Shown in pieces: positions 12,515 through 60,749 of a DNA stretch of 64,000 bases. The position numbers and the translations under genes were made by a program. Under the pieces are notes generated by a model. That model saw only the letters and a program-made list of their open reading frames with translations. It did not search any database and had not been told where the DNA came from. How positions within the stretch are numbered: position 1 is the first letter of the stretch; each line of letters begins with the position of its first letter. Origin of the DNA: an uncultured Candidatus Melainabacteria bacterium (lineage in GTDB: Bacteria; Cyanobacteriota; Vampirovibrionia; Gastranaerophilales; Gastranaerophilaceae); NCBI GenBank assembly GCA_949841365.1, contig CATKZI010000004.1, positions 959 to 64,958 on the forward strand, given 5' to 3'.

Positions 12515-14857
12515 CTAATTGATGTCAATAACACTTACGCCGTCGCCGCCTTCGGCATCCTCTCCGGGTCGGAATTTGGCAACATACGGCGAAGTCGATA
12601 AAAATTCTCTTACTGCCGATTTTAATGCGCCTGTGCCGTGACCGTGAATTACCGTAACGCAGGCAAGGTTTGCAAGACTTGCTTTATCAAGATAATTTTC
12701 TAAATCATCAAGTGCATCTTCAACCTTTAGACCGCGCAGGTCAAGTGTGTTTGAGATGTTTATGCGTCGAAGTTCAAAGCTGTCGAATGATGATGGTTTG
12801 TAAACATTTTGTTTTTTCTCGTAAGACGCGTCGTATGGAGCAAGTTTGTTGCATTTGATTTTTGTTTTTATGTTGCCCATTTGAACTGTAACGTATTTGT
12901 TCTTGTCAGGCAGGCTCAAAAGAGTTACGGGCTGGTTAAGTTCTTTCAAAATAAGCTTGTCATTTTCTTTAACAGATGCCCAGTCGATTTCATCATAGTG
13001 TTGTTTTTCATCGAATTCTGAGAGTTTACCGCGGAATTTTTGTTCCATTTGAGCAAGACGGGCGTATGAACGACGTGCAATTTTTTCGGATTTTTCACGG
13101 CGTAATTCATCTAAAATATCCTTAATCTCTGCCTTAACTTCAAGAAGTTCGCGGTCAAATTTATCTTTAATATTTTTTACTGTCTTTTTCTTATCTTTTT
13201 TGATGGCTTTTAGCGAAGTTTCATATTCTTCTTTAAGATTTTCTGATGTTTCTTTTAAACTTTCTGCTTCCTCAAGGTTTTGGGTTAATTTTGCCTGTGT
13301 CTCTTGAAGCTTTTCAACAACTGCAATCGACGGGTCTTTTGATGAAAGAATAATATCTTTTGCTTTCTGAGCTAGTTGAGCATCAAGTCCTAGGTTTTGC
13401 GCGATAGAAATTGCGTTGCTTAAGCCCGGAATGCCGATTAGAAGCTTGTATGTAGGTTTTAGGGTTTCCGTGTTAAATTCAACTGATGCGTTTTTGAAAT
13501 ACGGGTTTGTGTATTCAAGGGTTTTAAGTTCGCCATAATGGGTTGTGATAGTTGATGTAACCTCTTTTTGTGCAAGCTTTTCCAAAATTACCTGTGCCAG
13601 AACCGCGCCTTCTACAGGGTCTGTGCCTGCGCAAATTTCATCTAATATAACAAAAGTTTTGTCATTGCTCTGTTGCAGGATTTCGATAATATTTGTCATG
13701 TGTGACGAGAATGTGGACAAATTTTGTTGAATGCTCTGGTCGTCGCCTATGTCTGCAAAAACTTTTTCAAACGGATAAACTTTTGCGTGTGTACAGGGAA
13801 GGAACATTCCTGATTTTGCCATTAATATAAACAAGCCGATTGTTTTTATTGTAACGGTTTTACCGCCTGTGTTTGAACCTGTAATGACAACGGATTTGTA
13901 ATTTTTTCCGATTTCAAAATTATTTGTCACAATATTTTCGACATTGAGAAGCGGGTGCTTCATGTTCTCAAATTCAATAATTTTGTGAGTTAAAATCTCA
14001 GGTTCTACTGCCTGTAATTTTACGGCATAACGGGCTTTTGCAAAATGAAAATCAATTTCTGCCAGAATTTTTTCACTTAAAGCAAGAGATTTAAGATTAT
14101 CTTTTACAAGGTTTGTAAGCCCTGTCAAAATCTTAATCATCTCGGAATGAATTTGAGATTTAATTTCGCGGATTTTATTGTTCAGGGGGACGATTTGTGC
14201 TGGCTCGATATAAAAAGTTTTGTTTGTCGCAGAAACATCGTGAACAATTCCGGGGACTTTGTTTTTATCGGAGGCAATTACCTGAAAAACAATTCTGTCA
14301 TCACGTGTTGTGTAAATGTTTTCCTGCAAATGTTTTGAAAAATCAGGCGAATTTAAAAGTGATGAAACAGTTGTGCGCAAGTTTTTCTCATTATCGCGTA
14401 ATGCGCTGTAATGTCCTTTTAATTCAGGAGTTGCATCAGGTCTTATGTTTAGGTTTTCATCAAACGTATTAAAAATTTTTTCTTCAAGCTCTCTGTCTGA
14501 AATTAAAACTTGTGCTTTATCTTTTAAAATAGCATTTTCAAGATTGTCTGACAGGAATTTTTTAACCAGACGCGATGTTCTCAACGTTTTGGCTGTGTCA
14601 ATTAATTCTTCTTCTGAATAATATGTCTCGGGCGGGTTAATTTTTGCGACAAACTCAATCGGAATATCCGAGGGTATATCAAGGATAAACTTTGCCTCGC
14701 GGGTGTATTGAAGCTCTCGGTTAATTGCCACGATATCATCGAGCGGAGTTAAATTTAAGCATAATTCTTTGCTTTGCTCAATTTTGGCAAAGTTTGAAAG
14801 TTTTTCGAGAATTTTATCAAATTCAAGTGCTTTTCTGCTTTTGAGTGCAATTTCCAT
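12515..14857 (-). CDS. mutS2: Endonuclease MutS2 (MutS domain V ATPase plus C-terminal Smr)
   Basis: 780 aa. Walker A GSNTGGKT, DEICAGTDP, a long coiled-coil linker, and a C-terminal Smr domain (LDLRG...VIHGHGTGALK). Confidence 0.95.
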   Translation of the reverse strand: MEIALKSRKALEFDKILEKLSNFAKIEQSKELCLNLTPLDDIVAINRELQYTREAKFILDIPSDIPIEFVAKINPPETYYSEEELIDTAKTLRTSRLVKKFLSDNLENAILKDKAQVLISDRELEEKIFNTFDENLNIRPDATPELKGHYSALRDNEKNLRTTVSSLLNSPDFSKHLQENIYTTRDDRIVFQVIASDKNKVPGIVHDVSATNKTFYIEPAQIVPLNNKIREIKSQIHSEMIKILTGLTNLVKDNLKSLALSEKILAEIDFHFAKARYAVKLQAVEPEILTHKIIEFENMKHPLLNVENIVTNNFEIGKNYKSVVITGSNTGGKTVTIKTIGLFILMAKSGMFLPCTHAKVYPFEKVFADIGDDQSIQQNLSTFSSHMTNIIEILQQSNDKTFVILDEICAGTDPVEGAVLAQVILEKLAQKEVTSTITTHYGELKTLEYTNPYFKNASVEFNTETLKPTYKLLIGIPGLSNAISIAQNLGLDAQLAQKAKDIILSSKDPSIAVVEKLQETQAKLTQNLEEAESLKETSENLKEEYETSLKAIKKDKKKTVKNIKDKFDRELLEVKAEIKDILDELRREKSEKIARRSYARLAQMEQKFRGKLSEFDEKQHYDEIDWASVKENDKLILKELNQPVTLLSLPDKNKYVTVQMGNIKTKIKCNKLAPYDASYEKKQNVYKPSSFDSFELRRINISNTLDLRGLKVEDALDDLENYLDKASLANLACVTVIHGHGTGALKSAVREFLSTSPYVAKFRPGEDAEGGDGVSVIDIN

Positions 14858-19626: not shown

Positions 19627-19653
19627 AAAGCACCTCGAAAGAGGTGCTTTTTT
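19627..19653. terminator. Rho-independent terminator (copy A of a 26-nt repeat)
   Basis: AGCACCTC-GAAA-GAGGTGCT hairpin followed by T6. Lies between hppA (+) and the convergent pilin-like gene (-). Confidence 0.7.
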
Positions 19654-20359
19654 ATTCGTATAAATATTTAGCTCCGCATCCTGAACCTGCCATTCCTCCC
19701 GGTCCGCAAGCACCAGCATCGCTTTCAGCTGATTTGTCACAACCTTTGAGTTCATATCCCTGAGCACCACCGGGGATTACTTTATTTCCTCTGAATAAAA
19801 CAATAAACATATCACGCCCTACAATGTTAGGACCTTTTGTGCCATTAACATCAACTAAAAAGGAGGGATGCGTCCAAATGTAACTCTGGGCATATATTCT
19901 GACACCGCTGTTTAATTGTGCATAACCTCCTCCTCCTGCATACATACACCATTTTTTGTCATCGTTTGGATTTAATGTTTTGCAGTCAGGAGAAACATTT
20001 TTTTGATTGCCAAATCCATTGGCGCATATTTTACCTTGTGTGCCGTCTACTACACAGTAATCTTCACTTAATCTTGATAATACTTGATAATATATTTCTG
20101 TTGAATATGGTTTTACAATTGTATCCAGACCGGTAAGAGGATGATTAATTGGGTTTTCAGCAAAAGCATTTTCATAAGCACTGCTTATTTGTGCAAAGGT
20201 CTTTTTCCACAATGCTTTAAAGTGTTTGTCTTGAATATTGTTTACAAGTGTTGGAATAGTTATAGCAGAAACAACACCTATGATTCCAAGTGTAATAAGC
20301 GTTTCAGATAATGTAAAACCTTTATTACTACGAAATTTTAAATCTGATAATTTACACAT
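19652..20359 (-). CDS. Type IV pilin-like protein (prepilin N-terminal cleavage/methylation domain), intact
   Basis: Start moved to MCKLSDLKFRSNKGFTLSETLITLGIIGVVSAITIPTLV, which has an AAGAGG RBS. It has the G-1/F+1/E+5 motif. The C-terminal VDVNGTKGPNIVGRDMF motif is shared with the two other paralogues. Confidence 0.85.
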   Translation of the reverse strand: MCKLSDLKFRSNKGFTLSETLITLGIIGVVSAITIPTLVNNIQDKHFKALWKKTFAQISSAYENAFAENPINHPLTGLDTIVKPYSTEIYYQVLSRLSEDYCVVDGTQGKICANGFGNQKNVSPDCKTLNPNDDKKWCMYAGGGGYAQLNSGVRIYAQSYIWTHPSFLVDVNGTKGPNIVGRDMFIVLFRGNKVIPGGAQGYELKGCDKSAESDAGACGPGGMAGSGCGAKYLYE

Positions 20360-22996: not shown

Positions 22997-24012
22997 AAAT
23001 ATTATCAGGATTAAATTTACAAGAAATACAAGAGATTACAGATGAACTGGGTGCTTCAAAATTTAGAGCACGACAAATTCATAACTGGATTTATTTGAAG
23101 TCTGTTAATGAAATTGATGGAATGACCGATTTATCTGTGAAATTTCGCGAGGAATTGAAAAAGGTTGCAACAGTTTCCGATACAAAAATAAAAGTTAAAC
23201 AGGAAAGTTCGGACGGAACTTTGAAATATTTATTGGAATTTCCTGACGGCGAATGTGTTGAAACTGTTCTTATGCGCTTTGATAATCGTGCAAATTTGAC
23301 AGCCTGTGTAAGTTCTCAGGTTGGCTGTGCCGTTAATTGTTCTTTTTGCGCAACAGGAAAACGCGGGTTTATCAGAAATCTTTCTTATAAAGAGATTATT
23401 GAACAAGTTTTGACAATTCAGCGTGATACCGGTTTAAAGGTTACTAATATCGTGTTTATGGGGCAGGGTGAACCGCTTTTAAATCTTGATAATGTATTGA
23501 AGGCAATGGAAATTTTTAATGAAAACTTCCAAATCGGTGCGCGCAGAATTACTGTTTCAACATCAGGTATAATCCCCGGGATTGCAAGACTTGCAGAAAA
23601 TGACATGCAGTCAACTCTTGCAATTTCTTTGCATGCACCAAATCATGAAATCCGCTCACAGTTGATGCAGATTGAAAACAAATATCCTATGCCTGAATTG
23701 AAAAAAGCTTTGAAAAATTATATCGAAAAAACAGGTAGAAGAATTACGATAGAATACCTTTTGATAAAGGATTTGAATGACACACTTGAAAGTGCAAAAC
23801 AGCTTGTAAATTATTTGCACGATTTAAAATGTAATATCAATTTAATCCCTTATAACCCGACAGAAAAGAACGATTATCAAAAACCTTCGGGAAATTCAAT
23901 AATGCGCTTTAAATCTTTACTTGAGCAATCAGGTAAAAAGGTTACCGTACGTCTTGAACGCGGTGCTGATATTGACGCGGCATGCGGACAGTTAAGAGGT
24001 AAGGTTAAATAA
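22993..24012 (+). CDS. rlmN: 23S rRNA/tRNA adenine-C2 methyltransferase RlmN (radical SAM)
   Basis: 339 aa. N-terminal FRARQIHNWIY, radical-SAM CAVNCSFCATG, and the conserved C-terminal Cys in GADIDAACGQL. ATGA overlap with the ykgJ-like gene. Confidence 0.92.
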   Translation: MKILSGLNLQEIQEITDELGASKFRARQIHNWIYLKSVNEIDGMTDLSVKFREELKKVATVSDTKIKVKQESSDGTLKYLLEFPDGECVETVLMRFDNRANLTACVSSQVGCAVNCSFCATGKRGFIRNLSYKEIIEQVLTIQRDTGLKVTNIVFMGQGEPLLNLDNVLKAMEIFNENFQIGARRITVSTSGIIPGIARLAENDMQSTLAISLHAPNHEIRSQLMQIENKYPMPELKKALKNYIEKTGRRITIEYLLIKDLNDTLESAKQLVNYLHDLKCNINLIPYNPTEKNDYQKPSGNSIMRFKSLLEQSGKKVTVRLERGADIDAACGQLRGKVK

Positions 24013-24016
24013 ATTA

Positions 24017-24735
24017 TTATTTGCAAGAGGTTTTTCCATTCCAAGAAAGGTCTTTGCAATGTAAATAATCGAGATTCTCGTTGAAAATAACCCAAGCAGT
24101 ACAGCGGTCGCCGTAATTTTGACTTCCTCCTAAGCATCGAGTTAGAAATTCACTATCTTCGTTACCTATAGCAATAACCATGTTATTTACAAGATTAAAT
24201 TGAAATAAGTCTTTGCCGTATGTATTAGGACCATTTGCACCGTTCACATCATAAAAAATATAAAATTGAGGCCCGTCTTTTACATAATTTCCTGCTATAC
24301 CGCGAAAAGCAATAGATGCTCCATCAGCAAGAAGTACTTTATAATAGCGTGAATCTGTCCCGTAATTTGCGGAAACGCTGCTGCCATCAAGCCATTTATA
24401 ATTTTTCATATAGAAACAACCTTGACCATTAGCACCGCAATCTTTTGCAATTTTCAAATATGGCCTAAATATATTGAATACTTGTAAAGCTCCGTCATAA
24501 CTCCAAGGAAGTGAATATTCTCCCGGTTGCTCTTCATTGTTATACATATTATATGCATTACTTAATGTAGAATACATCTTTTTCATTTTATTAACGGTAA
24601 CTTTTTCTCGGTGTTTTTCAATAAGCACAGGCATGGTCATTGCTGCTACCACGCCGATAATACCAAGAGTAATCAAAACTTCAGCTAAAGTAAAACCTTC
24701 GGGGGGGGGGCACTCACAGCTTTTTTATTAAACAT
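24017..24735 (-). CDS. Type IV pilin-like protein interrupted by a frameshift at a C10 tract (candidate phase-variable gene, OFF as assembled)
   Basis: GGAGG RBS and ATG at 24735, then 8 codons, then C10 (24710-24701). After the tract comes EGFTLAEVLITLGIIGVVAAMTMPVLI in a different frame, continuing into track ORF 24017-24676. C11 or C8 would restore a single ORF. The C-terminal YDVNGANGPNTYGKDLF motif is present. Confidence 0.8.
24701..24710. repeat. G10/C10 homopolymer inside the pilin leader coding region
   Basis: Counted directly: gggggggggg at 24701-24710. It is one of only two such tracts in the window. Confidence 0.95.
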
Positions 24736-24810
24736 ATATACCTCCAATTATTATTTTTAATTATAAATGATTTTTTTACATTTTGCAAGATTTATAGTAG
24801 TATTTTTTTT

Positions 24811-25248
24811 ATGAAAACATTAATACAAAGAGTTAAACGAGCATCTGTTACGATTGACGGTGAATTGTATTCGGCAATTGATAAGGGATTGCTTGTTTTT
24901 GTCGGAGTTGAAAAGGCTGATGAGAAAGTTAATGCCGAAAAACTCGTTGAAAAAATCCTGAAACTTCGTATTTTTGAGGATGAAAATGAGAAAATGAATT
25001 TGTCTGTTACCGATGTTCAAGGCGAAATACTTATTGTTTCTCAATTTACGCTTTGCGGTGATTGCAAAAAAGGAACTCGTCCATCATTTGACAATTCTGC
25101 GCCTTTAGATAAAGCAATTGAACTTTACGAATATTTCGTGACTTGTGTAAAACAAAGCAGTTTAAATGTTAAGACCGGAAAGTTCCGTGCAATGATGGAC
25201 GTTGAGCTGATTAATGACGGACCTGTAACATTTTGGCTTGAAAAATAG
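24811..25248 (+). CDS. dtd: D-aminoacyl-tRNA deacylase
   Basis: 145 aa. MKTLIQRVKRASV N-terminus, SQFTL and NDGPVTF motifs. Confidence 0.93.
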   Translation: MKTLIQRVKRASVTIDGELYSAIDKGLLVFVGVEKADEKVNAEKLVEKILKLRIFEDENEKMNLSVTDVQGEILIVSQFTLCGDCKKGTRPSFDNSAPLDKAIELYEYFVTCVKQSSLNVKTGKFRAMMDVELINDGPVTFWLEK

Positions 25249-25376: not shown

Positions 25377-26387
25377 ATGTATGTAAACAAGTGTATCAAA
25401 TGTGGTCGTGAGTTTGAAACAAAAAACCCCAAAAGAGTAATTTGTCCAGATTGTTTGTATCCTGATAAAAATATGATGGTATCGTCAACTCCTGATGCTC
25501 CAAAACCTGAAGCACCGGCATCTGAACCGTTAAACGGCTATAGTGCCGGCGGTAATGATGAAGCTCCTCGTTATTACAGTGCAGGTGGCGGTAATGAGCA
25601 GCAGCCGAGATATAACAGACCGCAAAGACAATATAATAACAATTATAATAATCGCGGCGGGTACAATAATAATCGTCAACAGGGCGGTTATCAACAAAAT
25701 CGTCAGCAAGGCGGATATAATAGAAATAATAATTATAACCGTCCTCAACAAGGTGGTTACAATCGTCAACAAGGTAATTATCAACAAAATCGTCCGCAAC
25801 AGGGTGGTTATAACAGAAATAATAATTACAACAACAGACGTCCTCAACAAGGCGGCTTTAATCGTGGCGGATTTAACAACAGACGCCCAATGCAGAAAAA
25901 AGCTCCAAAACAATTGCTTGTAAGTAAGGAGCAATTGGAACAAATTGAATTGTTATACAAATTGATGCTTCCGCTTCCAAATCCGGATTGTCATGAAGTT
26001 ATTGGTGAAAAAATCGGGTTAGAACCAAGAAAAGTATTCTTTGGTATCAATTTGGTAAGACAAAAAATGATGCTTCCGAAATTGCCGTTCCCGAAACGTA
26101 AACTCGCAATTTCACCTGACCAGCTTTTTGCTATTAAAAACTTATATGAACCATTATTACCGCTTCCTCCAATCGGTTGTCACAAAATTATTGCGGCACA
26201 ATTGAAAATGGATGAGTGGCGTGTTCACGTTGGTATAGGATTAATTCGTTCTCAAATGGGATTGGGACGTTGGAATGAAGACAGACCTGATAAACCTGCA
26301 GAGTTTCAAAAGAAAGACGAAGTTGTAGCAGAAGAAGCTAAACCAAAAAGAGGCAGAAAAAAGAAAACGGAAGAAACTGCTGAGTAA
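25377..26387 (+). CDS. Hypothetical protein: N-terminal zinc ribbon, Q/N/G/R-rich low-complexity region, duplicated C-terminal domain
   Basis: Zinc ribbon CIKCG...CPDC. GGYN/QQNR repeats follow. Two ~60-aa repeats are present: LYKLMLPLPNPDCHEVIGEKIGLEPRKVFFGINLVRQKM and LYEPLLPLPPIGCHKIIAAQLKMDEWRVHVGIGLIRSQM. The stop lies 2 nt before the rimM start. Confidence 0.72.
   Translation: MYVNKCIKCGREFETKNPKRVICPDCLYPDKNMMVSSTPDAPKPEAPASEPLNGYSAGGNDEAPRYYSAGGGNEQQPRYNRPQRQYNNNYNNRGGYNNNRQQGGYQQNRQQGGYNRNNNYNRPQQGGYNRQQGNYQQNRPQQGGYNRNNNYNNRRPQQGGFNRGGFNNRRPMQKKAPKQLLVSKEQLEQIELLYKLMLPLPNPDCHEVIGEKIGLEPRKVFFGINLVRQKMMLPKLPFPKRKLAISPDQLFAIKNLYEPLLPLPPIGCHKIIAAQLKMDEWRVHVGIGLIRSQMGLGRWNEDRPDKPAEFQKKDEVVAEEAKPKRGRKKKTEETAE
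25689..25868 (+). repeat. Imperfect 90-nt tandem duplication within the Q/N-rich coding region
   Basis: TATCAACAAAATCGTC(A/C)GCAAC... begins at both 25689 and 25779. Each copy encodes YQQNR(Q/P)QQGGYNRNNNYN.... Confidence 0.6.
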
Positions 26388-28785: not shown

Positions 28786-28904
28786 GAAAACTACCCTTTA
28801 CTACTACTTGTATATATAAAGTATTTTTTTTGAAATTTATTGCTTTTTCTTTAAGAAATGTTACAAAATTTTTTAAAAATTTCCATGACGCATATAATTT
28901 ATTT

Positions 28905-29486
28905 ATGGGCAGTTATGAAGAAAATTATTTGGATAAACGTCCTCAATCTCTTTGTAAAATGTGTGGTAAGTGCTGTAGAGTTGTGACAACTTCAATTCCT
29001 TATAAAAAATTGAAACTTATGGCGCATGAAGGAGATGAAGGTGCTGTTGATTTTTTGTCGTTATTTGTGCCTTATAAATCAATAGAAGAAGCCAGACAAG
29101 TTGATGCGTCAATTGTTGATAATATTGTTGAAAGACTTTCTGAAGATGGAAATTATAACGAAAAAGATACAACTTTTTATTACTGCAAATATTTGAGGGA
29201 TGATAATTTATGTTCAAATTATGAAAATCGTCCTGCATTGTGCAGACACTGTCCATCTACTCCTTGGGCTATTGTACCTCCCGGATGCGGGTTTGAAGGG
29301 TGGCTGTTTTGGAAGCGTGAGGAAGATAAACAGAAAGTCCGCAGAGCAAAAGAGGAACTTTTGGAACTTCAACTGCTTCGCAAACGTACAACAAATGAAG
29401 AAACTTTAAAGAAAATTTCTGTAGTTGAACAAAAAATTCAAAGAAATATTGACATGTACAAAAAATACGGCTCAGAAAATTGGTGA
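28905..29486 (+). CDS. YkgJ-family Cys-cluster protein (paralogue of 22325-22996)
   Basis: Start moved to MGSYEENYLDKRPQSLCKMCGKCC. Shares CxxCxxCC, FVPY, a C..YENRP..CR..P cluster and P..CGF..W with the other copy. Confidence 0.72.
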   Translation: MGSYEENYLDKRPQSLCKMCGKCCRVVTTSIPYKKLKLMAHEGDEGAVDFLSLFVPYKSIEEARQVDASIVDNIVERLSEDGNYNEKDTTFYYCKYLRDDNLCSNYENRPALCRHCPSTPWAIVPPGCGFEGWLFWKREEDKQKVRRAKEELLELQLLRKRTTNEETLKKISVVEQKIQRNIDMYKKYGSENW

Positions 29487-31973
29487 TTATTTTGATAACA
29501 TTAATTTATCCAATTTTCTTTTGTAGAACTCTGTATTAATGTTTAACTTTTCTCCGATGTCAAGAAGCATGTCTATAAACTTTCTGTCTGCAGGACGTTT
29601 AATCCCTGCTTCCAAAATATCGCCAATTCTATGATAAATTTTTGCAAAATAGATGTTTTGCGCTTCTGCAATATCAATTTGAAGTTCAAGTTTTTCTACA
29701 GTATCAAAGATTTCTAAAATTGCATCAGCCTGCTGGATTTCAAAGCTGTGAACAAGTCTGTTGATATTTTGTAAAATTTTTCTGCCAAATATAGTATTTG
29801 ACGGAGTTTTATCCAGTTGGATATCAATTTTTTTAGCTTCATAATTAATATCTGTTGCCTGCTGGATTAAATCTTCTTCGATAAATCCGCCTGAATGCAC
29901 AACTATGTCGTTAAATTTTCTGCTCAAAGCATAGCCTGCCGAAAGTTTAAACTCGTCAGGAATTTTAAGTCCCAAACCTTGAAGGTGATAGATTGAGCCT
30001 TTGCCTTCATCGTACATACTCTGGTAGATTTGAGAGAATTTTTCAAGTTTGCTTTTCAAAAGGATTTGAAGGATTTTTCTTCTTTCTTCAATAAATATAT
30101 CTTTTAACGTGAAATATTCTTTGCCAAAGTGTTCATCCATTGCACGAATAATCTCTGTAAGCGGATTTATAAGGAATGATTTAATTAAGTTTGTTTTAAG
30201 TTTGCTGTATTCATCAGAGTATTCTTTGATTGCACAGTGGAAATCACCGCCTGAATATTGCATTAGGGCAAACATCAGGTTAGATTTTTGCAGAGTGATT
30301 TTTGATTGAATTTCAATATGTCCGACAACAAAAGTTGACGAACCTTTTTGAACTTTTTTGTAATCATGTTTTTTTATAGTATAGCAGTATACATTTTCTT
30401 CGTCTTCAAAATCCTGATAAAGAGAGGATAAAGCCCATAAAGTCGCAATTTGTTTCGAAGTTACGACTGACGGTTTTACAAAACGTTCAAAAATCTCTTT
30501 ACCTGTGCCGTGTTCAGGGATATTGCTTTTTGCTTCTGCCAAAATATTCAGGAAGTTTTCTTCTAAATTTTTATCTGTGAATTTTTCAGCTAACTGCATA
30601 GCTCGTGCCGCATATTTCATTAATTGAACGGTTTCGATACCTGAAATTTCAGAGAAAAACCAACCGCAGCTTGTGTACATCAAAAGTGCTTGACGTTGAA
30701 TTTCCAATAATTCCATAGCTCTGACTTTATCTTCGTCAGACAAATCAGGTTTAAAGTTGGTATGTTGGAATTTTTTTACATTCATTTCGTTACGGTCAAG
30801 AATAACCTCAATGTAATTGTTTCGAACATCCCAAATATTCCCGTTAAAGTATTTAGAACCTTCTTTTTCAAATACTTTAACGAGTTCATCTCTCAAATAA
30901 TCAAGAGCTTCTCTAAGCGGTTTTCTCCATTTTTGATTCCAGCCGGGGTGTCCGCCTGTAGAGCATCCGCAGTCTTCTTTCCATCTGCCGACTCCATGGA
31001 AACAGCTCCAGCTTGATGCTTGCTTAATCTCAACTTCGCAATTGCTTCTGTATTTGTCTAAGTATTCTGCGTAGTTTGTGATTGTGAAACCTTCGTCTTT
31101 TGCTTTAATTTTTAAAACATAAGCAAGTGCCATATCACCGAATTTAGTGTGATGACCGTAACTTTCCCCGTCAGTTGCGATATTTATTAGCTGAGGGAAG
31201 TTTCTGCAATCTGATACCCCTTCTTTTAAACGGCGGATAAATTTATTGCCGTCTTTTAAAAGTTCATCAAATGCAACAGAGCGGGAAATTGCACCGTCGT
31301 AGAAAAATAAATCAATAAATTTGCCGGGAGCTGATTTTATATAGTATCTGTAAGAACGTGCAGGGTCAATGTTTCCCCAGCTTACGTCTGTCCATTCTTT
31401 ATCGCCTTCCTGTCTGAATTTGTCTGCTTGATATGGTGAAAGAACTGTGAATTTAATTCCGTTTTCTTCTAAAATTCTGAGTGTATCGTCGTCAACTGCA
31501 GTTTCTGCAAGCCACATACCTTCCGGTTTTCTGCCGAAACGGTATTCAAAATCTTTAATCCCCCATTTTACTTGAGTGATTTTGTCGTTTTCATTGGCAA
31601 GAGGCATAATCATGTGGTTATAAACCTGTGCCATTGCGTTGCCGTGACCGTTATGTTCTGCGATACTTTCAATATCTGCTTTTATAATTCTTTCATAAGT
31701 TAAAGGTGCAAAATGTTCCATCCACGACAATAATGTCGGACCAAAATTGAAGCTCATGTGTTCATAGTTGTTGACTACATCAAGTATTCTGTTTCTGCTG
31801 TCAACAATTTTTGATACCGAATTCGGGTTGTAGCATTCTTTGTTAATTCTTTCATTCCAATCGTGGCAGGGCAACGCACTGTCTTGCAGTTCAATAGCTT
31901 CCAGCCATGGATTTTCACGCGGGGGTTGGTAAAAGTGCCCGTGAATCGTCAAAAATACTTCATTATTGCTCAT
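29487..31973 (-). CDS. Glycoside hydrolase family 57 protein with a long C-terminal extension
   Basis: Start moved to MSNNEVF, which has GGAG 6 nt upstream. GH57 motifs HGHFYQPPRENPW, WLAETAV and ATDGESYGHH are present. Confidence 0.87.
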   Translation of the reverse strand: MSNNEVFLTIHGHFYQPPRENPWLEAIELQDSALPCHDWNERINKECYNPNSVSKIVDSRNRILDVVNNYEHMSFNFGPTLLSWMEHFAPLTYERIIKADIESIAEHNGHGNAMAQVYNHMIMPLANENDKITQVKWGIKDFEYRFGRKPEGMWLAETAVDDDTLRILEENGIKFTVLSPYQADKFRQEGDKEWTDVSWGNIDPARSYRYYIKSAPGKFIDLFFYDGAISRSVAFDELLKDGNKFIRRLKEGVSDCRNFPQLINIATDGESYGHHTKFGDMALAYVLKIKAKDEGFTITNYAEYLDKYRSNCEVEIKQASSWSCFHGVGRWKEDCGCSTGGHPGWNQKWRKPLREALDYLRDELVKVFEKEGSKYFNGNIWDVRNNYIEVILDRNEMNVKKFQHTNFKPDLSDEDKVRAMELLEIQRQALLMYTSCGWFFSEISGIETVQLMKYAARAMQLAEKFTDKNLEENFLNILAEAKSNIPEHGTGKEIFERFVKPSVVTSKQIATLWALSSLYQDFEDEENVYCYTIKKHDYKKVQKGSSTFVVGHIEIQSKITLQKSNLMFALMQYSGGDFHCAIKEYSDEYSKLKTNLIKSFLINPLTEIIRAMDEHFGKEYFTLKDIFIEERRKILQILLKSKLEKFSQIYQSMYDEGKGSIYHLQGLGLKIPDEFKLSAGYALSRKFNDIVVHSGGFIEEDLIQQATDINYEAKKIDIQLDKTPSNTIFGRKILQNINRLVHSFEIQQADAILEIFDTVEKLELQIDIAEAQNIYFAKIYHRIGDILEAGIKRPADRKFIDMLLDIGEKLNINTEFYKRKLDKLMLSK

Positions 31974-31994
31974 CTCTAACTCCAAAATTTATAG

Positions 31995-41645: not shown

Positions 41646-42250
41646 TGTACGATTACATAAAAGGAATTTTGGCAGGTAAATCAAATACATCAAAGGGTGT
41701 TTTTTTGACTGTAGAAACTGGCGGAATAGGGTATTTGATTGAAACGACCGTACGCGATTATAATCTGGCAAATGCTGATGAGGTAAAAGTTTATACTGTT
41801 CTTATTCACCGTGAGGATAAGATGAGCCTTTGCGGTTTTTTGCATAAAGAGGACAGGGATATTTTCAATATTTTGACCTCTGTTTCGGGTGTCGGGTCTA
41901 AAATGGCGCTTACACTTTTGGATGAATTTGAAGCATCGGAACTTATCGGATTTGTAATTGACGGGAATTATAAAGAGATTACGCGTGCCAAAGGTGTTGG
42001 TCCTAAATTAGCGCAGAAAATAATTCTTGAATTAAAAGACAAGTTAATGAATTACAAAACAAAAGAACCGATAAAAATTACATCATCAGTTAAGGTTGAT
42101 GACAGTGCAGTTGAAGATGCACAAATGGTATTAGTTTCTCTCGGTTATGAGCGCAAAGAAATTCAAGATGCTATATCAAAAGCAGTTGCAGATAGTAAAA
42201 CAACTGCTGAAGAAATCTTAAAAGAAGCCTTGAAAATTTTATCTTTATAA
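41645..42250 (+). CDS. ruvA: Holliday junction branch migration complex subunit RuvA
   Basis: 201 aa. MYDYIKGIL N-terminus and HhH motifs SVSGVGSKMAL and AKGVGPKLAQKI. TAATG overlap with dnaA. Confidence 0.92.
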   Translation: MYDYIKGILAGKSNTSKGVFLTVETGGIGYLIETTVRDYNLANADEVKVYTVLIHREDKMSLCGFLHKEDRDIFNILTSVSGVGSKMALTLLDEFEASELIGFVIDGNYKEITRAKGVGPKLAQKIILELKDKLMNYKTKEPIKITSSVKVDDSAVEDAQMVLVSLGYERKEIQDAISKAVADSKTTAEEILKEALKILSL

Positions 42251-43165
42251 TAATAACATTGCAATCAATCCTGCAAGAACCATTGCAGGTCCAAACGGCA
42301 TATATGTTTTTGGTTTTTCTTTCAAACCTTTCAAGATAAATACGCAGGTTAATACGCCAAGAACTGCCAACAGGATTGCGCCGATTAAGTATGCTGTGCC
42401 ATCAAGTTTTAACAAACAAAACGCGATTGCATAAGCAACAAATGCTAAGAAAGAAATTAAAGTTTTCCAATCTTTATTTGTAACAAGCCCTTTTATAAAT
42501 ATCGGTAAAAATGCAATTACTTGAATAATAACACTCAAGGCAAGAACAATAAGTAATATTTTCCACCCTAAAAGTGCGCCCAAACCGATTGCGATAAATG
42601 TATCACCTTCGCCGAAAGCTCTTGTTCCCGCAATTAAATATCCCGAGCGTGCGCAAACTTCCATAATTACCGCACCTAAAACAGCACCGATAACAGATGA
42701 GATAATAATTTCAAATGTGTGGTTTACAACTGACAAATATATGGTATTCAAAAATCCGAGCCCGATAAATGTATATGTATGTGCATCAAAAACAACTTTT
42801 TCTTTAATATCAGTTCCCGCCATAGCTACCATAACAGATGCGATTGCCCACATAAACAATGTTTCAATGCTCATTCCGAATTTTATAAAAATCAAGGTAA
42901 AAATTATACCTGTGACAAGTTCAATAATCGGATATTGAATGCTGATTTTTTCTTTGCAGAATGCACATTTCCCGCCGAGTAATATATATGATAATACAGG
43001 GATATTATGCCACCATTTCAAAGGATTTTGGCATTTTGGGCATTTGGAAGCCGGAAAAACGATTGATTCTCCGCTCAATGCTCTTAAAATTACTACGTTT
43101 AAAAAACTTCCGATACAAAGTCCGATTATAAATACGAATGCTAATACTGCAATTAATAGTGCCAT
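42245..43165 (-). CDS. pilD: Prepilin peptidase (A24 family, PilD-like)
   Basis: Start moved to MALLIAVLAF, which has an AAGAGGA RBS. Zn-finger CPKCQ...CAFCK, and catalytic Asp contexts AGTDIKE and GEGDTF. Confidence 0.88.
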   Translation of the reverse strand: MALLIAVLAFVFIIGLCIGSFLNVVILRALSGESIVFPASKCPKCQNPLKWWHNIPVLSYILLGGKCAFCKEKISIQYPIIELVTGIIFTLIFIKFGMSIETLFMWAIASVMVAMAGTDIKEKVVFDAHTYTFIGLGFLNTIYLSVVNHTFEIIISSVIGAVLGAVIMEVCARSGYLIAGTRAFGEGDTFIAIGLGALLGWKILLIVLALSVIIQVIAFLPIFIKGLVTNKDWKTLISFLAFVAYAIAFCLLKLDGTAYLIGAILLAVLGVLTCVFILKGLKEKPKTYMPFGPAMVLAGLIAMLLL

Positions 43166-43166
43166 T

Positions 43167-43934
43167 TTAGATGTCCTCTTTTGCTTCAATTATTTCATAC
43201 ATTTTGTGTAAAGCTTTTTTTAATCTCCTTGAAACCTGCATTTGTGATATATGCAAGATTTCCGAGATTTCTCGCTGGTTTAAGTCGTGATAATAACTTA
43301 ATTCAATTATTTCTTTTAAATCTGCAGGGAGCTTTTCAATAGCCTGTTCCAGCATAATTTTATTCTCATTGGAAGTAATAATTTCCTGATAATCGCCTGA
43401 GGGGATTTTGTCAATAAGTGTTAAATCGTCGTCATCAACGGATGAAATAGCCTGATCAAGAGAAAGAGTTGTTTTGCAAAGCTCTATTTCCATAACTTCA
43501 TGAATTTTTACTTCATCAACTCCGACAATTTCTGCAATCTGTTCTTCTGTCGGTTCATCGAACCCTTTTTCTTTTAACTGTTTAACTGCGGAACTGATTT
43601 TAAAAACGAGTTCTTGAAGTTCTCTCGGGGCTTTGATTATCGACGCTTTATCGCGCAGATAATGTTTGATTTCACCGCGGATAAAATATGATGCATAAGT
43701 TTTAAACTTTGTATTTTTATCGGTGTTGAAAAATTCTATAGCTTTAATAAGCCCGATAGAGCCTACCTGTATCAAATCTTCATTGGAAATTCCTGCCTGC
43801 ACGGTAATACTGCATGCAATTTTTTTAACTAATTGCATAGCATTTTCAACAATTTGCAGATGAAGCATTCGCTTTTTTTTCTCGTCATTACAGGTTTTGT
43901 AAGCGAGAAGTTGTCTATCCAACTCTTCTGACAT
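43167..43934 (-). CDS. Sigma-70 family sigma factor, group 3 (SigF/SigB/FliA-like)
   Basis: 255 aa. Region 2 (DLIQVGSIGLIKAIEFFN, FKTYASYFIRGEIKHYLRD) and a region 4 HTH (REISEILHISQMQVSRRLKKAL). The stop lies 1 nt from the pilD start. Confidence 0.87.
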   Translation of the reverse strand: MSEELDRQLLAYKTCNDEKKKRMLHLQIVENAMQLVKKIACSITVQAGISNEDLIQVGSIGLIKAIEFFNTDKNTKFKTYASYFIRGEIKHYLRDKASIIKAPRELQELVFKISSAVKQLKEKGFDEPTEEQIAEIVGVDEVKIHEVMEIELCKTTLSLDQAISSVDDDDLTLIDKIPSGDYQEIITSNENKIMLEQAIEKLPADLKEIIELSYYHDLNQREISEILHISQMQVSRRLKKALHKMYEIIEAKEDI

Positions 43935-52372: not shown

Positions 52373-52750
52373 ATGGTAACAGTAGATAAAAAAACAGTTA
52401 AAAACGTATCAAATATAATTGAAGGATTAGGAATGAACCCTAATTCAGAATGTATCGGTATTTTGGAAGATGTTGGTACAAATTCTAAAATCGATGCAAT
52501 TAGAGAAATGACTTCTCGCGCTCTTGTTAAAAGAAATGAAGAAGATGCATTGAGAGTTGTTATTGCTAACAAAGGAAAAGGTATCAATGATATGTCTACA
52601 GTTGTTGCAATGAGCACAATTAATGAACTTTTATCATTGACAGATAAAACTATAGCTATGAAAGTTTTGTCAAATACTGTTGAAATGCACTCTGATGAAG
52701 AAGTTAGAGATAATGCACGTTCAGTAAAAGCTTTAATGGCTCTATCTTAA
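52373..52750 (+). CDS. Hypothetical helical (HEAT-like) protein
   Basis: 125 aa with a GGAG RBS. Helical repeats end in DEEVRDNARSVKALMAL. Confidence 0.5.
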   Translation: MVTVDKKTVKNVSNIIEGLGMNPNSECIGILEDVGTNSKIDAIREMTSRALVKRNEEDALRVVIANKGKGINDMSTVVAMSTINELLSLTDKTIAMKVLSNTVEMHSDEEVRDNARSVKALMALS

Positions 52751-52772
52751 ATAAATTTGCCTTATAAATATA

Positions 52773-52802
52773 AAAAACCGCTTTAACATAAGCGGTTTTT
52801 TT
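52773..52802 (+). terminator. Rho-independent terminator
   Basis: AACCGCTT-TAACAT-AAGCGGTT hairpin followed by T7. A TGTTATAAT extended -10 for the next gene follows immediately. Confidence 0.7.
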
Positions 52803-52832
52803 GTTATAATAATAAAAAAGGAGGAAGCAGAT

Positions 52833-53560
52833 ATGAAATTTAATCAAAATATCGGGGGGGGGGCACTCATAGCTTAACTCCTGCGTTTACTTTAGCTGAG
52901 GTTTTAATTACTCTCGGAATAATCGGAGTTGTCGCGGCGCTTGTTATACAAGCCCTTGTAACTAATATAACTAATAAGGGATATGTTGAAAGATTAAAGA
53001 AGGCTCAAGCTGTATTACAAATTGCTACGGATACTATACTAAATGAGAATAGTGCTATTTTTGTACCAAATGGTAAAGAAATTTGTGATACTGTCGGTGC
53101 TGAAGCTGAAAAAAAGGCCTATGAAGAATTTATTGAATCCTATGCGTCTAAAATGAAAGTAATAAAAAGATGTGAAAGAACCAGCTGGAACTCTAATCAA
53201 TGTGTTAACGGCTGGAATTCATATAAAGGGCTTGATAATAGTATATTGCAAAATGTTGAGAATAACATGCCGTTTTATTTTACTTATCCGCTTGTATTAG
53301 CAGATGGTATGACTATTGCATTTAGATTTCAATCGAATGGCGGTGGAGGATTTTTCTGGACTCAGGATGCATCAGTACGCTTTACTGTAGATGTTAATGG
53401 AAAAAAAGGTCCTAATAAACTTGGCAGGGATGTGTTTTTGTTGTATCTGCGTGATGGAAAAATTGTCCCCAACAGTAAATATATTGGGGACTGTGAAACA
53501 AATAAAACAGGCTTGAGCTGTGCATACAGGGTTCTGACTGAAGGCGGTATGAACTATTAA
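52833..53560 (+). CDS. Type IV pilin-like protein interrupted by a frameshift at a G10 tract (candidate phase-variable gene, OFF as assembled)
   Basis: AAAGGAGG RBS and ATG at 52833, then 7 codons, then G10 (52854-52863). A frame without stops runs from 52844 through AFTLAEVLITLGIIGVVAALV (52883 onward) into track ORF 53153-53560. G11 or G8 would fuse it to the ATG. The C-terminal VDVNGKKGPNKLGRDVF motif is present. Confidence 0.8.
52854..52863. repeat. G10 homopolymer inside the pilin leader coding region
   Basis: Counted directly: 7 G at 52854-52860 plus 3 G at 52861-52863. Confidence 0.95.
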
Positions 53561-59651: not shown

Positions 59652-60749
59652 ATGGAAAATACTTTTGATATTGAAGCTTTTTTGAGAAAAGCTGTAGCTA
59701 TAGGCGCATCAGATGTGCATTTACAGGCTAATGAACATCCTGTAGTAAGAGTTGACGGTAAAATCACAAAGGTTAACATGCCGATTTTATCGGATGAAGA
59801 TTTGGTTAATATTTATCAGGCTTTGTTGCCAAATCATTTTACCGAAAAATTTCAAGATGCGTTTGATTTGGATTTTGCTTATGAGATTAAGGGCTGTTCT
59901 CGTTTCAGGGTAAATTTGAGCAGGCAGCTGGGCAGATGTGCGCTTGTTATAAGAACAATTCCATATAATATCAAAAAGATTACCAGTTTAAGTCTGCCAG
60001 AATCTATTGAACAATTTGCATCATTAAATAACGGACTTGTTCTGATTACAGGACCTACCGGCTCGGGAAAATCAACTACGATTGCTTCTTTGATTGACTA
60101 TGTTAATACAAATTATCCGAAACATATTATTACAATTGAAGATCCTGTTGAATTTATATTTACAAATAAAAAATCTATAGTTTCCCAAAGACAGGTACAG
60201 ATTGATACAGCAAGTTTCCCTGACGGAATTAAGTATGCTTTAAGACAAGATCCCGATGTTATTTTTATCGGTGAAATCAGGGACAGAGAAACTGTTACGG
60301 CTGCATTGAAGGCTGCCGAAACAGGTCACCTTGTGTTTGCTACAATTCACACCAACGATGCTATTCAAACAGTTAACAGAATTGTCAATATGTTTGAACC
60401 TTCGGACAGAGATTTTGTAAGACAGCAGTTGGCAGCTGTTTTGAGAGGTACTGTTTCTCAAAAATTAGTTCCGCTTTCAACTTCATCAGGTCGTCGTCCT
60501 GCTGTGGAAATGCTTGTTGTAACACCAACCGTTAAAGATTTTATTGAAAAAGACAAGTTGGAAGAAATTTATGACCTTGTTAAAAAAGGTTCGTTTAACA
60601 ATATGATTACAATGAATGCTTCATTGTACAGTCTTTACGAACAGGGATTTATTACCGAAGAAACTGCTATGATTTATTCTGATAATAAGAATGAGCTTCA
60701 GCAAATGTTTAGAGGTGTATTCCATGGAACTTTCGGCGGTAATGCATGA
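59652..60749 (+). CDS. pilT: Type IV pilus retraction ATPase PilT
   Basis: 365 aa. Motifs SDVHL, Walker A GPTGSGKST, ITIEDPVEF, DPDVIFIGEIRD and GHLVFATIHTN. Confidence 0.93.
   Translation: MENTFDIEAFLRKAVAIGASDVHLQANEHPVVRVDGKITKVNMPILSDEDLVNIYQALLPNHFTEKFQDAFDLDFAYEIKGCSRFRVNLSRQLGRCALVIRTIPYNIKKITSLSLPESIEQFASLNNGLVLITGPTGSGKSTTIASLIDYVNTNYPKHIITIEDPVEFIFTNKKSIVSQRQVQIDTASFPDGIKYALRQDPDVIFIGEIRDRETVTAALKAAETGHLVFATIHTNDAIQTVNRIVNMFEPSDRDFVRQQLAAVLRGTVSQKLVPLSTSSGRRPAVEMLVVTPTVKDFIEKDKLEEIYDLVKKGSFNNMITMNASLYSLYEQGFITEETAMIYSDNKNELQQMFRGVFHGTFGGNA

Follow-up and report, generated by a model that had tools for sequence, protein, structure and literature searches.

Two pilin-like genes with ten-base G/C tracts in their leaders

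The stretch of DNA analysed here (64 kb, contig CATKZI010000004.1, hereafter the window) belongs to an uncultured organism placed in Candidatus Gastranaerophilales, within Melainabacteria, and contains two genes for pilin-like proteins, gene 1 on the minus strand and gene 2 on the plus strand, each interrupted by a run of ten G/C bases 21–25 nucleotides (nt) after the start codon, within a cleavable prepilin leader. The window has a GC content of 36%, and its G/C runs of at least 6 nt are exactly two, both of 10 nt (24701–24710 and 52854–52863). A preliminary description of gene 1 held that such a run is very unlikely by chance, and the numbers agree: approximately 0.005 are expected in the window against 2 found, an excess of more than 100-fold.

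Reading the minus strand across 23900–24900 recovered the arrangement of Shine–Dalgarno (SD) sequence, ATG, C10 tract and prepilin motif that had been claimed for 24735–24695. A putative sigma-70-like promoter, recognized by consensus match only (24760–24788; TTGCAA, 17-nt spacer, TATAAT; 10 of 12 positions), precedes the SD sequence GGAGG (24741–24745, read from the sequence), which lies 5 nt upstream of the ATG (24735–24733). The pre-tract leader codons (24711–24735; ATG TTT AAT AAA AAA GCT GTG AGT G) end in a 10-nt conserved flank, GCTGTGAGTG (24720–24711), and are followed by the C10 tract (24701–24710; G10 on the plus strand). Directly 3′ of the tract stands GAA GGT TTT ACT TTA GCT GAA GTT TTG ATT ACT CTT GGT, encoding the prepilin motif E-G/F-T-L-A-E (slash before Phe+1, whose codon is 24694–24692) and opening a pilin-like body that extends over 24017–24700 with its stop codon at 24019–24017. 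As had been noted, the ATG and the prepilin motif are in different frames, off by one base in the C10 allele: the ATG frame gives MFNKKAVSAPPPKVLL and then a stop codon (24685–24687), while the pilin frame (EGFTLAEVLITLG...) runs uninterrupted from the tract until its stop at 24017. C10 is thus an OFF allele; with C11 or C8 the ATG is in frame with the prepilin.

In gene 2, the parts follow one another on the plus strand. A sigma-70-like promoter is predicted at 52783–52810 (TTAACA, 16-nt spacer, TG-TATAAT; 11 of 12 positions, extended −10), and overlaps a hairpin and T-run at 52772–52801 that our scan scored as a minus-strand terminator; from its sequence, this element could be the plus-strand terminator of the upstream gene (52373–52750). 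The segment 52820–52853 holds the SD sequence GGAGG (52820–52824), the ATG (52833–52835) and the pre-tract codons ATG AAA TTT AAT CAA AAT ATC; the G10 tract (52854–52863) comes next, and then 52864–52885, comprising the conserved flank CACTCATAGC (52864–52873) and the linker TTAACTCCTGCG, with a zero-frame TAA at 52875–52877. The linker runs into TTT ACT TTA GCT GAG, the beginning of the mature part FTLAEVLITLG... (52886–53560), which is open to its stop codon at 53558–53560. The G10 allele is one base short of frame and hence OFF, and G11 gives MKFNQNIGGGGTHSLTPA/FTLAE. The preliminary description had put both tracts at the same relative position in pilin-like genes: their position is the same, their strand sense is not, as gene 2 lies on the plus strand and has Gly codons (G) in its tract where gene 1 has Pro codons (C).

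G or C runs of 6–9 nt occur nowhere in the 64-kb window. Approximately 3.9 G/C runs of at least 6 nt would be expected there (probability of none approximately 0.02), and A/T runs reach 8–9 nt; intermediate-length G/C runs appear to be avoided outside both switch sites.

Tract length varies among near-identical assemblies

Public assemblies of the same lineage contain several lengths of both tracts. All length calls are taken from assembly consensus sequences, and sampling alleles through exact protein sequences is biased toward particular alleles. The reconstructed C11 protein, used as a query, led to a 90%-identity cluster whose members differ at the N-terminus only. Two of them match the single prepilin that had been predicted for C11 or C8: P0123 (MFNKKAVSAPPPEGFTLAE, C11) and P0124 (...SAPPEGF..., C8) are ON forms, and P0130 (MKFNQNIGGGGTHSLTPAFTLAE) is the G11, ON form of gene 2. 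The remainder are OFF, namely P0001 (MPPPPEGF, called from a GTG; C12), P0126 and P0127 (MPPPEGF; C9), and the truncated calls P0121 and P0122, found in 22 and 21 contigs, respectively.

The underlying DNA, once fetched, bore out the lengths implied by the proteins, with identical flanks. Site 1 (gene 1) has C8 in L009, C9 in L010, C10 in the window, L001 and L104–L113, C11 in L005–L008 and C12 in L004; site 2 (gene 2) has G10 in the window, L002/L160, L003/L164 and L161–L163, and G11 in L011. The tracts thus lack the single fixed length that would have spoken for a plain pseudogene: site 1 ranges over 8–12 C, and site 2 has 10 or 11 G. The tract indel is the sole difference from the window, over 2.7–6.7 kb, in six of these contigs (L004, L005, L007, L008, L010 and L011); L009 is a 98.4% identical strain that has kept the tract, as C8. 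When the common OFF call was sampled, C10 was found in 10 of 10 further assemblies, 100% identical over 4–20 kb bar one single-nucleotide polymorphism, and G10 in 5 of 5 sampled loci at site 2, two of them being contigs L002 and L003.

Lengths also differ between samples of a single study: SRR27010023 has C11 where SRR27010004 and SRR27010013 have C10, and in another study SRR21392035 has both C11 and G11, SRR21392045 has C10 and SRR21392031 has G10 at site 2. Such differences argue against a platform artefact, and with C10 in all ten additional assemblies and C11 in other samples of the same studies, the window's C10 is not a miscounted C11. Because the lineage is near-clonal across samples and the tract is almost its sole variable, we recognize in these data the signature of a hypermutable repeat. 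A dN/dS comparison between strains found just two differences within the gene to work with.

Contigs 100% identical to the window, for up to 20 kb, come from at least six sequencing projects (L104–L113 and L160–L164; ERR3199xxx, SRR21392xxx, SRR27010xxx, SRR31212xxx, SRR31801356 and SRR32607912). Such clonality is unusual in a gut commensal and suggests a strain common to closely related hosts or facilities.

One leader layout across the gene family

We surveyed 80 homologous loci, 269 kb in total, from representative genomes of other Gastranaerophilales species, and the layout of the window genes recurs among many divergent paralogues and orthologues. They contain 37 G/C runs of at least 9 nt, against 0.07 expected, with lengths of 9 (7 runs), 10 (19), 11 (6), 12 (2), 13 (2) and 16 (1) and a mode of 10. 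A tract lies within 250 nt upstream of the prepilin motif in 28 of 80 motifs (approximately 35%), in a constant layout: SD, ATG, 21–40 nt, the tract, a linker of 6–425 nt and then G/FTLAEVLITLG or A/FTLAEVLITLG. Both orientations occur, approximately 25 loci reading the tract as G (G-sense) and 9 as C (C-sense). Between tract and motif, the pilin frame has 2 stops in 1,220 codons, compared with 83 and 111 in the other two frames, which points to selection on translation that begins at the upstream ATG and passes through the tract. The nearest relatives of gene 1 (P0002 and P0011) have this layout too and are OFF alleles miscalled from a GTG. Four loci (L028, L032, L081 and L091) are in frame with tracts of 10–11; L081 is an orthologue of gene 2 and is ON at G10. 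Comparison with orthologous loci in relatives, one of the checks proposed beforehand, thus found the tract kept in the strain L009 and in the gene 2 orthologues L081 and L146 (G10).

In the species that bears P0002 (L092–L097), a tract-bearing pilin gene sits between a CxxCxxCC gene and a GH57 gene; in the window (28830–31985) the two neighbours adjoin directly (29486/29487) and enclose no pilin gene. Judging from such sequence comparisons, pilin-like genes are apparently gained and lost at scattered housekeeping loci. Many family members have a duplicated prepilin motif, a first AFTLAE followed after approximately 15–25 residues by the real AFTLAEVLITLG, as in P0017, P0021, P0037, P0046, P0060, P0091, P0092 and the linker of L016 (for example, MKLKFYAFTLAEGATHVAHWNNSRKIA/FTLAEVLITLGI); the second copy has the look of a short insertion that duplicated its target, or of a recombination scar in the leader.

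The products are pilin-like

The proteins of the ON alleles score above the cut-off (16.3 bits) of the NCBIfam model TIGR02532, at 23.1 bits for gene 1 and 18.2 bits for gene 2. With Pfam N_methyl they fall slightly under the gathering score of 21.2 (18.9 and 17.1, respectively). A third pilin-like gene of the window (19652–20359, minus strand), which serves as an internal comparison, has no tract and an intact leader, MCKLSDLKFRSNKG/FTLSE, and passes that score at 25.1. Both tract genes encode a class III leader, ending in G or A and followed by F-x-x-x-E and a hydrophobic helix. An AlphaFold2 model of the gene 1 ON protein (mean predicted local distance difference test score 90.8, predicted template modelling score 0.83) has the 'lollipop' form of a 53-residue N-terminal helix (residues 17–69) and a mixed alpha/beta head. 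A Foldseek search of the PDB for kinship of this head to solved pilins or pseudopilins gave no match at E < 1, and precomputed Pfam assignments place the head of homologues in DUF6613 (PF20318); 'pilin-like' is therefore the safe label. The gene 1 and gene 2 proteins are only 29% identical to each other. With promoter-like sites, SD, ATG, open bodies, TIGR02532 matches and the modelled architecture, both genes look functional.

The window also encodes a cognate peptidase and an assembly ATPase. A prepilin (type IV leader) peptidase of the Peptidase_A24 family (42245–43189, minus strand; PF06750 120 bits, PF01478 39 bits, both above cut-off) is, from its family assignment, the enzyme expected to remove the tract-encoded leader, and a T2SSE-family pilus or secretion ATPase of 365 amino acids (aa) lies at 59652–60749 on the plus strand (PF00437, 169 bits). 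A Gastranaerophilales genome has been reported with pilA, pilB, pilC, pilD and pilT (PMC5877343). An open reading frame (ORF) of 336 aa (25377–26387, plus strand) has a zinc-ribbon-like N-terminus, long low-complexity repeats rich in N/Q/G/R/Y (NNYNNRGGYNNNRQQGGYQQNRQQGGYNR...) and, after the repeats, two similar C-terminal segments, with no Pfam match on record.

A conserved flank that follows the tract, not the gene

The tract is embedded in a conserved sequence. When 36 tracts are set in G orientation, they are bracketed by C, at −1 in 31 of 36 and at +1 in 29 of 36, and the sequence 3′ of the tract is roughly CA(A/C)yyyTAAGCTyC. A profile built from the G-sense loci only scores C-sense genes well only after reverse complementing, a result that persists when the two tract-adjacent positions are left out and orthologues are collapsed (p = 7 × 10^-4, n = 5). 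Flanks are far better conserved than gene bodies: those of L019 and L059 are 100% identical, compared with 47% aa identity of the proteins. As regards homogenization of the flank within genomes, identity is 0.75–0.88 for pairs from the same genome and averages 0.65 between genomes, where 23% of pairs reach at least 0.75. At the protein level, the flank of G-sense genes is in addition a conserved piece of the leader, either G-T-H-S or N-L-S-S.

The two copies in the window match at 9 of 10 flank positions (chance 6 × 10^-5), and the 20-mer G10-CACTCAYAGC occurs twice in the window compared with 0.00 times in 100 shuffles. As gene 1 reads C and gene 2 reads G, the two tract-and-flank units, which form direct repeats along the chromosome, take opposite orientations relative to their genes. 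In the ON register, they are codon-aligned reverse complements, one base apart, of a 7-codon block, GGG GGG GGG GGC ACT CAT AGC (GGGGTHS) versus GCT GTG AGT GCC CCC CCC CCC (AVSAPPP), and deleting this block leaves plausible short leaders. On the antisense strand, the gene 2 flank (52864–52886, minus strand) reads AGGAG-N7-ATG AGT G-C10, an SD and start codon entering the tract from the opposite side; with C10 the antisense ORF is only MSAPPPIF before its stop, and it is similar to the beginning of a C-sense pilin gene.

Several possible explanations of the flank found no support. A hairpin enclosing the tract was rejected after constrained folding of 36 tracts with 25-nt flanks (mean z −0.12), in which cross-flank pairs were at the shuffled value. 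The plus strand of the window is G-rich throughout and carries both G-runs; a link between replication strand and tract orientation found no support beyond the window, where the G-rich strand has 24 of 37 other tracts (p = 0.10), with 5 of 11 for C-sense loci and G-sense loci behaving like no-tract controls. Site-specific recombination between the 20-nt repeats is ruled out by geometry: the repeats are direct, 28 kb apart, and lie between divergent genes, both of which would lose their 5′ ends.

A search with the tract-plus-flank module found no matches in viral contigs. Its 46 matches in Joint Genome Institute (JGI) metagenomes are mostly chance occurrences in GC-rich DNA; those in low-GC DNA are again pilin genes of the G-sense type, and CACTCA in C-sense was not found there a further time. 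A 12-nt palindrome, CTACGTACGTAG, lies 4–6 nt from the tract, upstream in G orientation, at L040, L046 and L064, from several species, and L053 has a sequence related to it. One locus of an unrelated organism (41% GC) has a G-run with CACTCACAG in three metagenomes, as G10, G10 and G12 in L148, L151 and L156; this variable run shortly precedes an ATG of the C-run strand, with no recognizable pilin gene.

From these alignments one might picture the tract and flank (TC-Gn-CA...) as a portable, codon-aligned cassette that is copied or inverted, in either orientation, into the leaders of many pilin-like genes, and whose prevalent one-base-short alleles are decoded at a low level by −1 frameshifting or transcriptional slippage, making a graded switch. 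We put this forward as a speculative and rather improbable idea.

A probable slipped-strand switch and its alternatives

We consider it highly probable that gene 1 and gene 2 are homopolymer contingency loci of a known kind, switched by slipped-strand mispairing. The tract exceeds chance expectation, its length is polymorphic between invariant flanks, ON and OFF alleles both exist and orthologues retain it. Slipped-strand mispairing at replication, which we infer as the cause, would add or remove single bases. With 11 or 8 bases, the SD-ATG and the prepilin motif would share one frame, so that prepilin is made at full length; with 9, 10 or 12, translation would stop 4–6 codons past the tract and give no pilin, so that the window allele (10 and 10) would be OFF at both genes. 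Within a population these changes would be reversible. The leader residues encoded by the run are Gly or Pro alone. As the window's prepilin peptidase should remove this leader, in-frame length variants would leave the mature protein unchanged. Each cell would then display a stochastic subset of a large pilin-like repertoire, probably as a hedge against immune, phage or niche pressures.

Several observations weigh against this account or complicate it. States could be tallied for 32 loci with an assignable SD-ATG, five start codons having been corrected by hand, and the outcome depends on start-codon assignment: 4 are ON, 19 need +1 or −2 and 9 need −1 or +2. This is a deficit of ON states (4 of 32, p = 0.007 against one-third), and the three states are not uniform (p = 0.004); in the window's species, C10, one base short of ON, dominates. 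Such skew is not predicted by symmetric neutral slippage alone, and selection for OFF, mutational bias or frameshifting on OFF alleles is needed in addition; by our analysis, a mutational bias like that of Campylobacter together with selection against expression would explain it. Nor does a simple slippage model predict the conserved, orientation-independent flank. The lengths are those of assembly consensus sequences, and reversible switching in a single population would go beyond them. Finally, the assembly of two metaSPAdes contigs, L101 and L102, fails exactly at a G12 tract, beyond which near-pure poly-C follows; some of the individual lengths could therefore be miscalled. The poly-C junk amounts to approximately 70–100 nt (L101 1–110 and L102 1–75) and is probably an artefact of two-colour chemistry or of the assembler. 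Poly-G instability in Campylobacter goes back to a missing MutS1/MutL mismatch-repair system; the window encodes a MutS2/Smr-type protein at 12515–14857 on the minus strand.

The alternative that survives best is recoding, according to which the 10-nt allele is not truly OFF: −1 frameshifting or RNA-polymerase slippage would give constitutive, low-level prepilin, and changes of DNA length would merely modulate its amount. The state that needs +1 is the configuration in which the downstream ORF lies in the −1 frame; it accounts for 19 of 28 OFF loci, both window genes included, and both genes have zero-frame slippery heptamers, C CCC CCC or G GGG GGG, in the registers GCC CCC CCC CCG (gene 1) and ATC GGG GGG GGG GCA (gene 2). 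This coincidence makes recoding a legitimate rival of slipped-strand switching or a complement to it, and the scarcity of ON alleles, the sampled OFF alleles of the window's species, all of exactly 10 bases, and the linker kept open in the pilin frame fit it as well. However, the frame relation is not conserved, as 9 loci need −1 and four, including L081, are in frame at the same tract lengths, and ON alleles (C11, C8 and G11) exist in nature. No conserved structure flanks the tract, in the folding of 36 tracts described above, and Rfam finds nothing at either site; a frameshift stimulator would have no effect from the upstream side of the run, which is where C-sense genes have the conserved flank, and the distance from tract to pilin motif varies from 6 to 425 nt. 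The conserved stimulatory structure and conserved frame relation by which a frameshift site is recognized are thus both missing, and we regard recoding as improbable.

Far less probable is a sequencing or assembly artefact, in which each tract would have one fixed true length and the spread from 8 to 12 would reflect homopolymer miscalls or assembler choices. G/C homopolymers of at least 10 are error-prone, L101 and L102 do end in approximately 100 nt of poly-C and coverage is low in several assemblies (approximately 8.7× in L004, for example). Yet C10 is common to at least 11 independent assemblies and C11 to 4–6, lengths differ within a single study, and one sample has 11 at both sites. An assembler cap at 10 is ruled out by lengths of 11–13 assembled elsewhere, and the confinement of tracts to a single position of one gene family is unlike the behaviour of an artefact.

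That the frameshifts are plain inactivating mutations in decaying paralogues is scarcely credible: most alleles are out of frame and the family is large and redundant, but neither gene body has acquired the further stops or frameshifts foreseen for a pseudogene, promoter-like sites, SD and ATG are kept, in-frame alleles circulate, the tract is retained in L009 and in the orthologues of other species (L081 and L146), and linkers are stop-free in the pilin frame.

Comparison with known systems

The likeness to Neisseria pilC and to the poly-G loci of Campylobacter drawn in the preliminary description is apt. The pilC tract lies in the cleaved signal-peptide region, and in-frame variants leave mature PilC unchanged. 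In Neisseria gonorrhoeae and N. meningitidis, pilC1 and pilC2 have a genic tract of G9–20 that causes ON/OFF frameshifts, according to a summary of the original report (Jonsson et al. 1991, summarized in PMC5953494). As a G homopolymer in the 5′ coding part of a gene for a type IV pilus protein, this is the nearest analogue of the tracts described here. It differs in that PilC is a Sec-exported, pilus-associated adhesin and not a prepilin with a class III leader, and in that one or two genes of Proteobacteria are concerned, whereas here it is a large paralogous family in another phylum. To our knowledge, no conserved, orientation-independent flank has been described for pilC.

At the genome level, the closest system is the Campylobacter phasome, where the genome is likewise AT-rich and has its long G/C runs in switchable genes only (PMC8355987; PMC6321876). 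In Campylobacter jejuni, tracts of G8 tend to gain bases and those of G11 and above to lose them, which holds lengths at G9–G10 (PMC8355987). The two share a gut habitat, many independent loci that give combinatorial phasotypes, and tract lengths, mostly 9–10 nt there and mostly 9–13 nt with a mode of 10 in the family here. In contrast, Campylobacter tracts stand at various ORF positions, mainly in genes for glycosylation, capsule, lipooligosaccharide and restriction-modification, and mismatch-repair loss is documented there.

Homopolymer length also controls fimbrial or surface protein expression in systems that act on transcription. Poly-C promoter tracts set fimbrial expression at fim2 and fim3 of Bordetella pertussis. 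In Neisseria opc, the length of a poly-C promoter tract controls expression (PMC3960869). There the tract alters the spacing of promoter elements, whereas here it lies inside the ORF and acts on the reading frame. Other type IV pilins are varied by the R64 shufflon, the Moraxella piv inversion and Neisseria pilE/pilS gene conversion. For Neisseria, pilS is covered in PMC5953494. These systems resemble the present one in stochastic variation of a type IV pilus protein and differ in using site-specific inversion or gene conversion, not slippage. Programmed −1 frameshifting, as at the A AAA AAG of dnaX, and transcriptional slippage are known at homopolymers. The tracts resemble dnaX-type sites in their zero-frame slippery homopolymer and downstream ORF in the −1 frame, but differ from them in the points weighed above: no conserved stimulatory element, an unconserved frame relation and the existence of in-frame alleles.

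Implications for surface variation in Gastranaerophilales

Slipped-strand contingency loci have been documented mostly in a few cultured pathogens, among Neisseria, Haemophilus, Campylobacter and Helicobacter. Our full-text literature searches found no report of simple-sequence-repeat phase variation in Melainabacteria or Gastranaerophilales, and the notable features of the present loci are the placement of the tract in the prepilin leader, its spread through the family and the flank that is independent of orientation. Public assemblies here provide population-level evidence that this strategy is also used by an uncultured lineage of gut bacteria, non-photosynthetic relatives of the cyanobacteria, with a switch that would govern a large, fast-diverging family of pilin-like surface proteins; a tract placed within a leader that is cleaved off would be a neat design.

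For the study of these organisms, pilin genes that look 'truncated' or have odd starts in metagenome-assembled genomes (MAGs) of Gastranaerophilales would in many cases be OFF alleles or GTG miscalls and not pseudogenes. The tracts can themselves fragment MAGs and hide the 5′ ends of pilin-like genes; their lengths are also a ready marker for reading phasotypes straight from metagenomic reads. For the biology of the lineage, Gastranaerophilales appear to vary their surface under pressure that may be driven by immunity, phages or niche.

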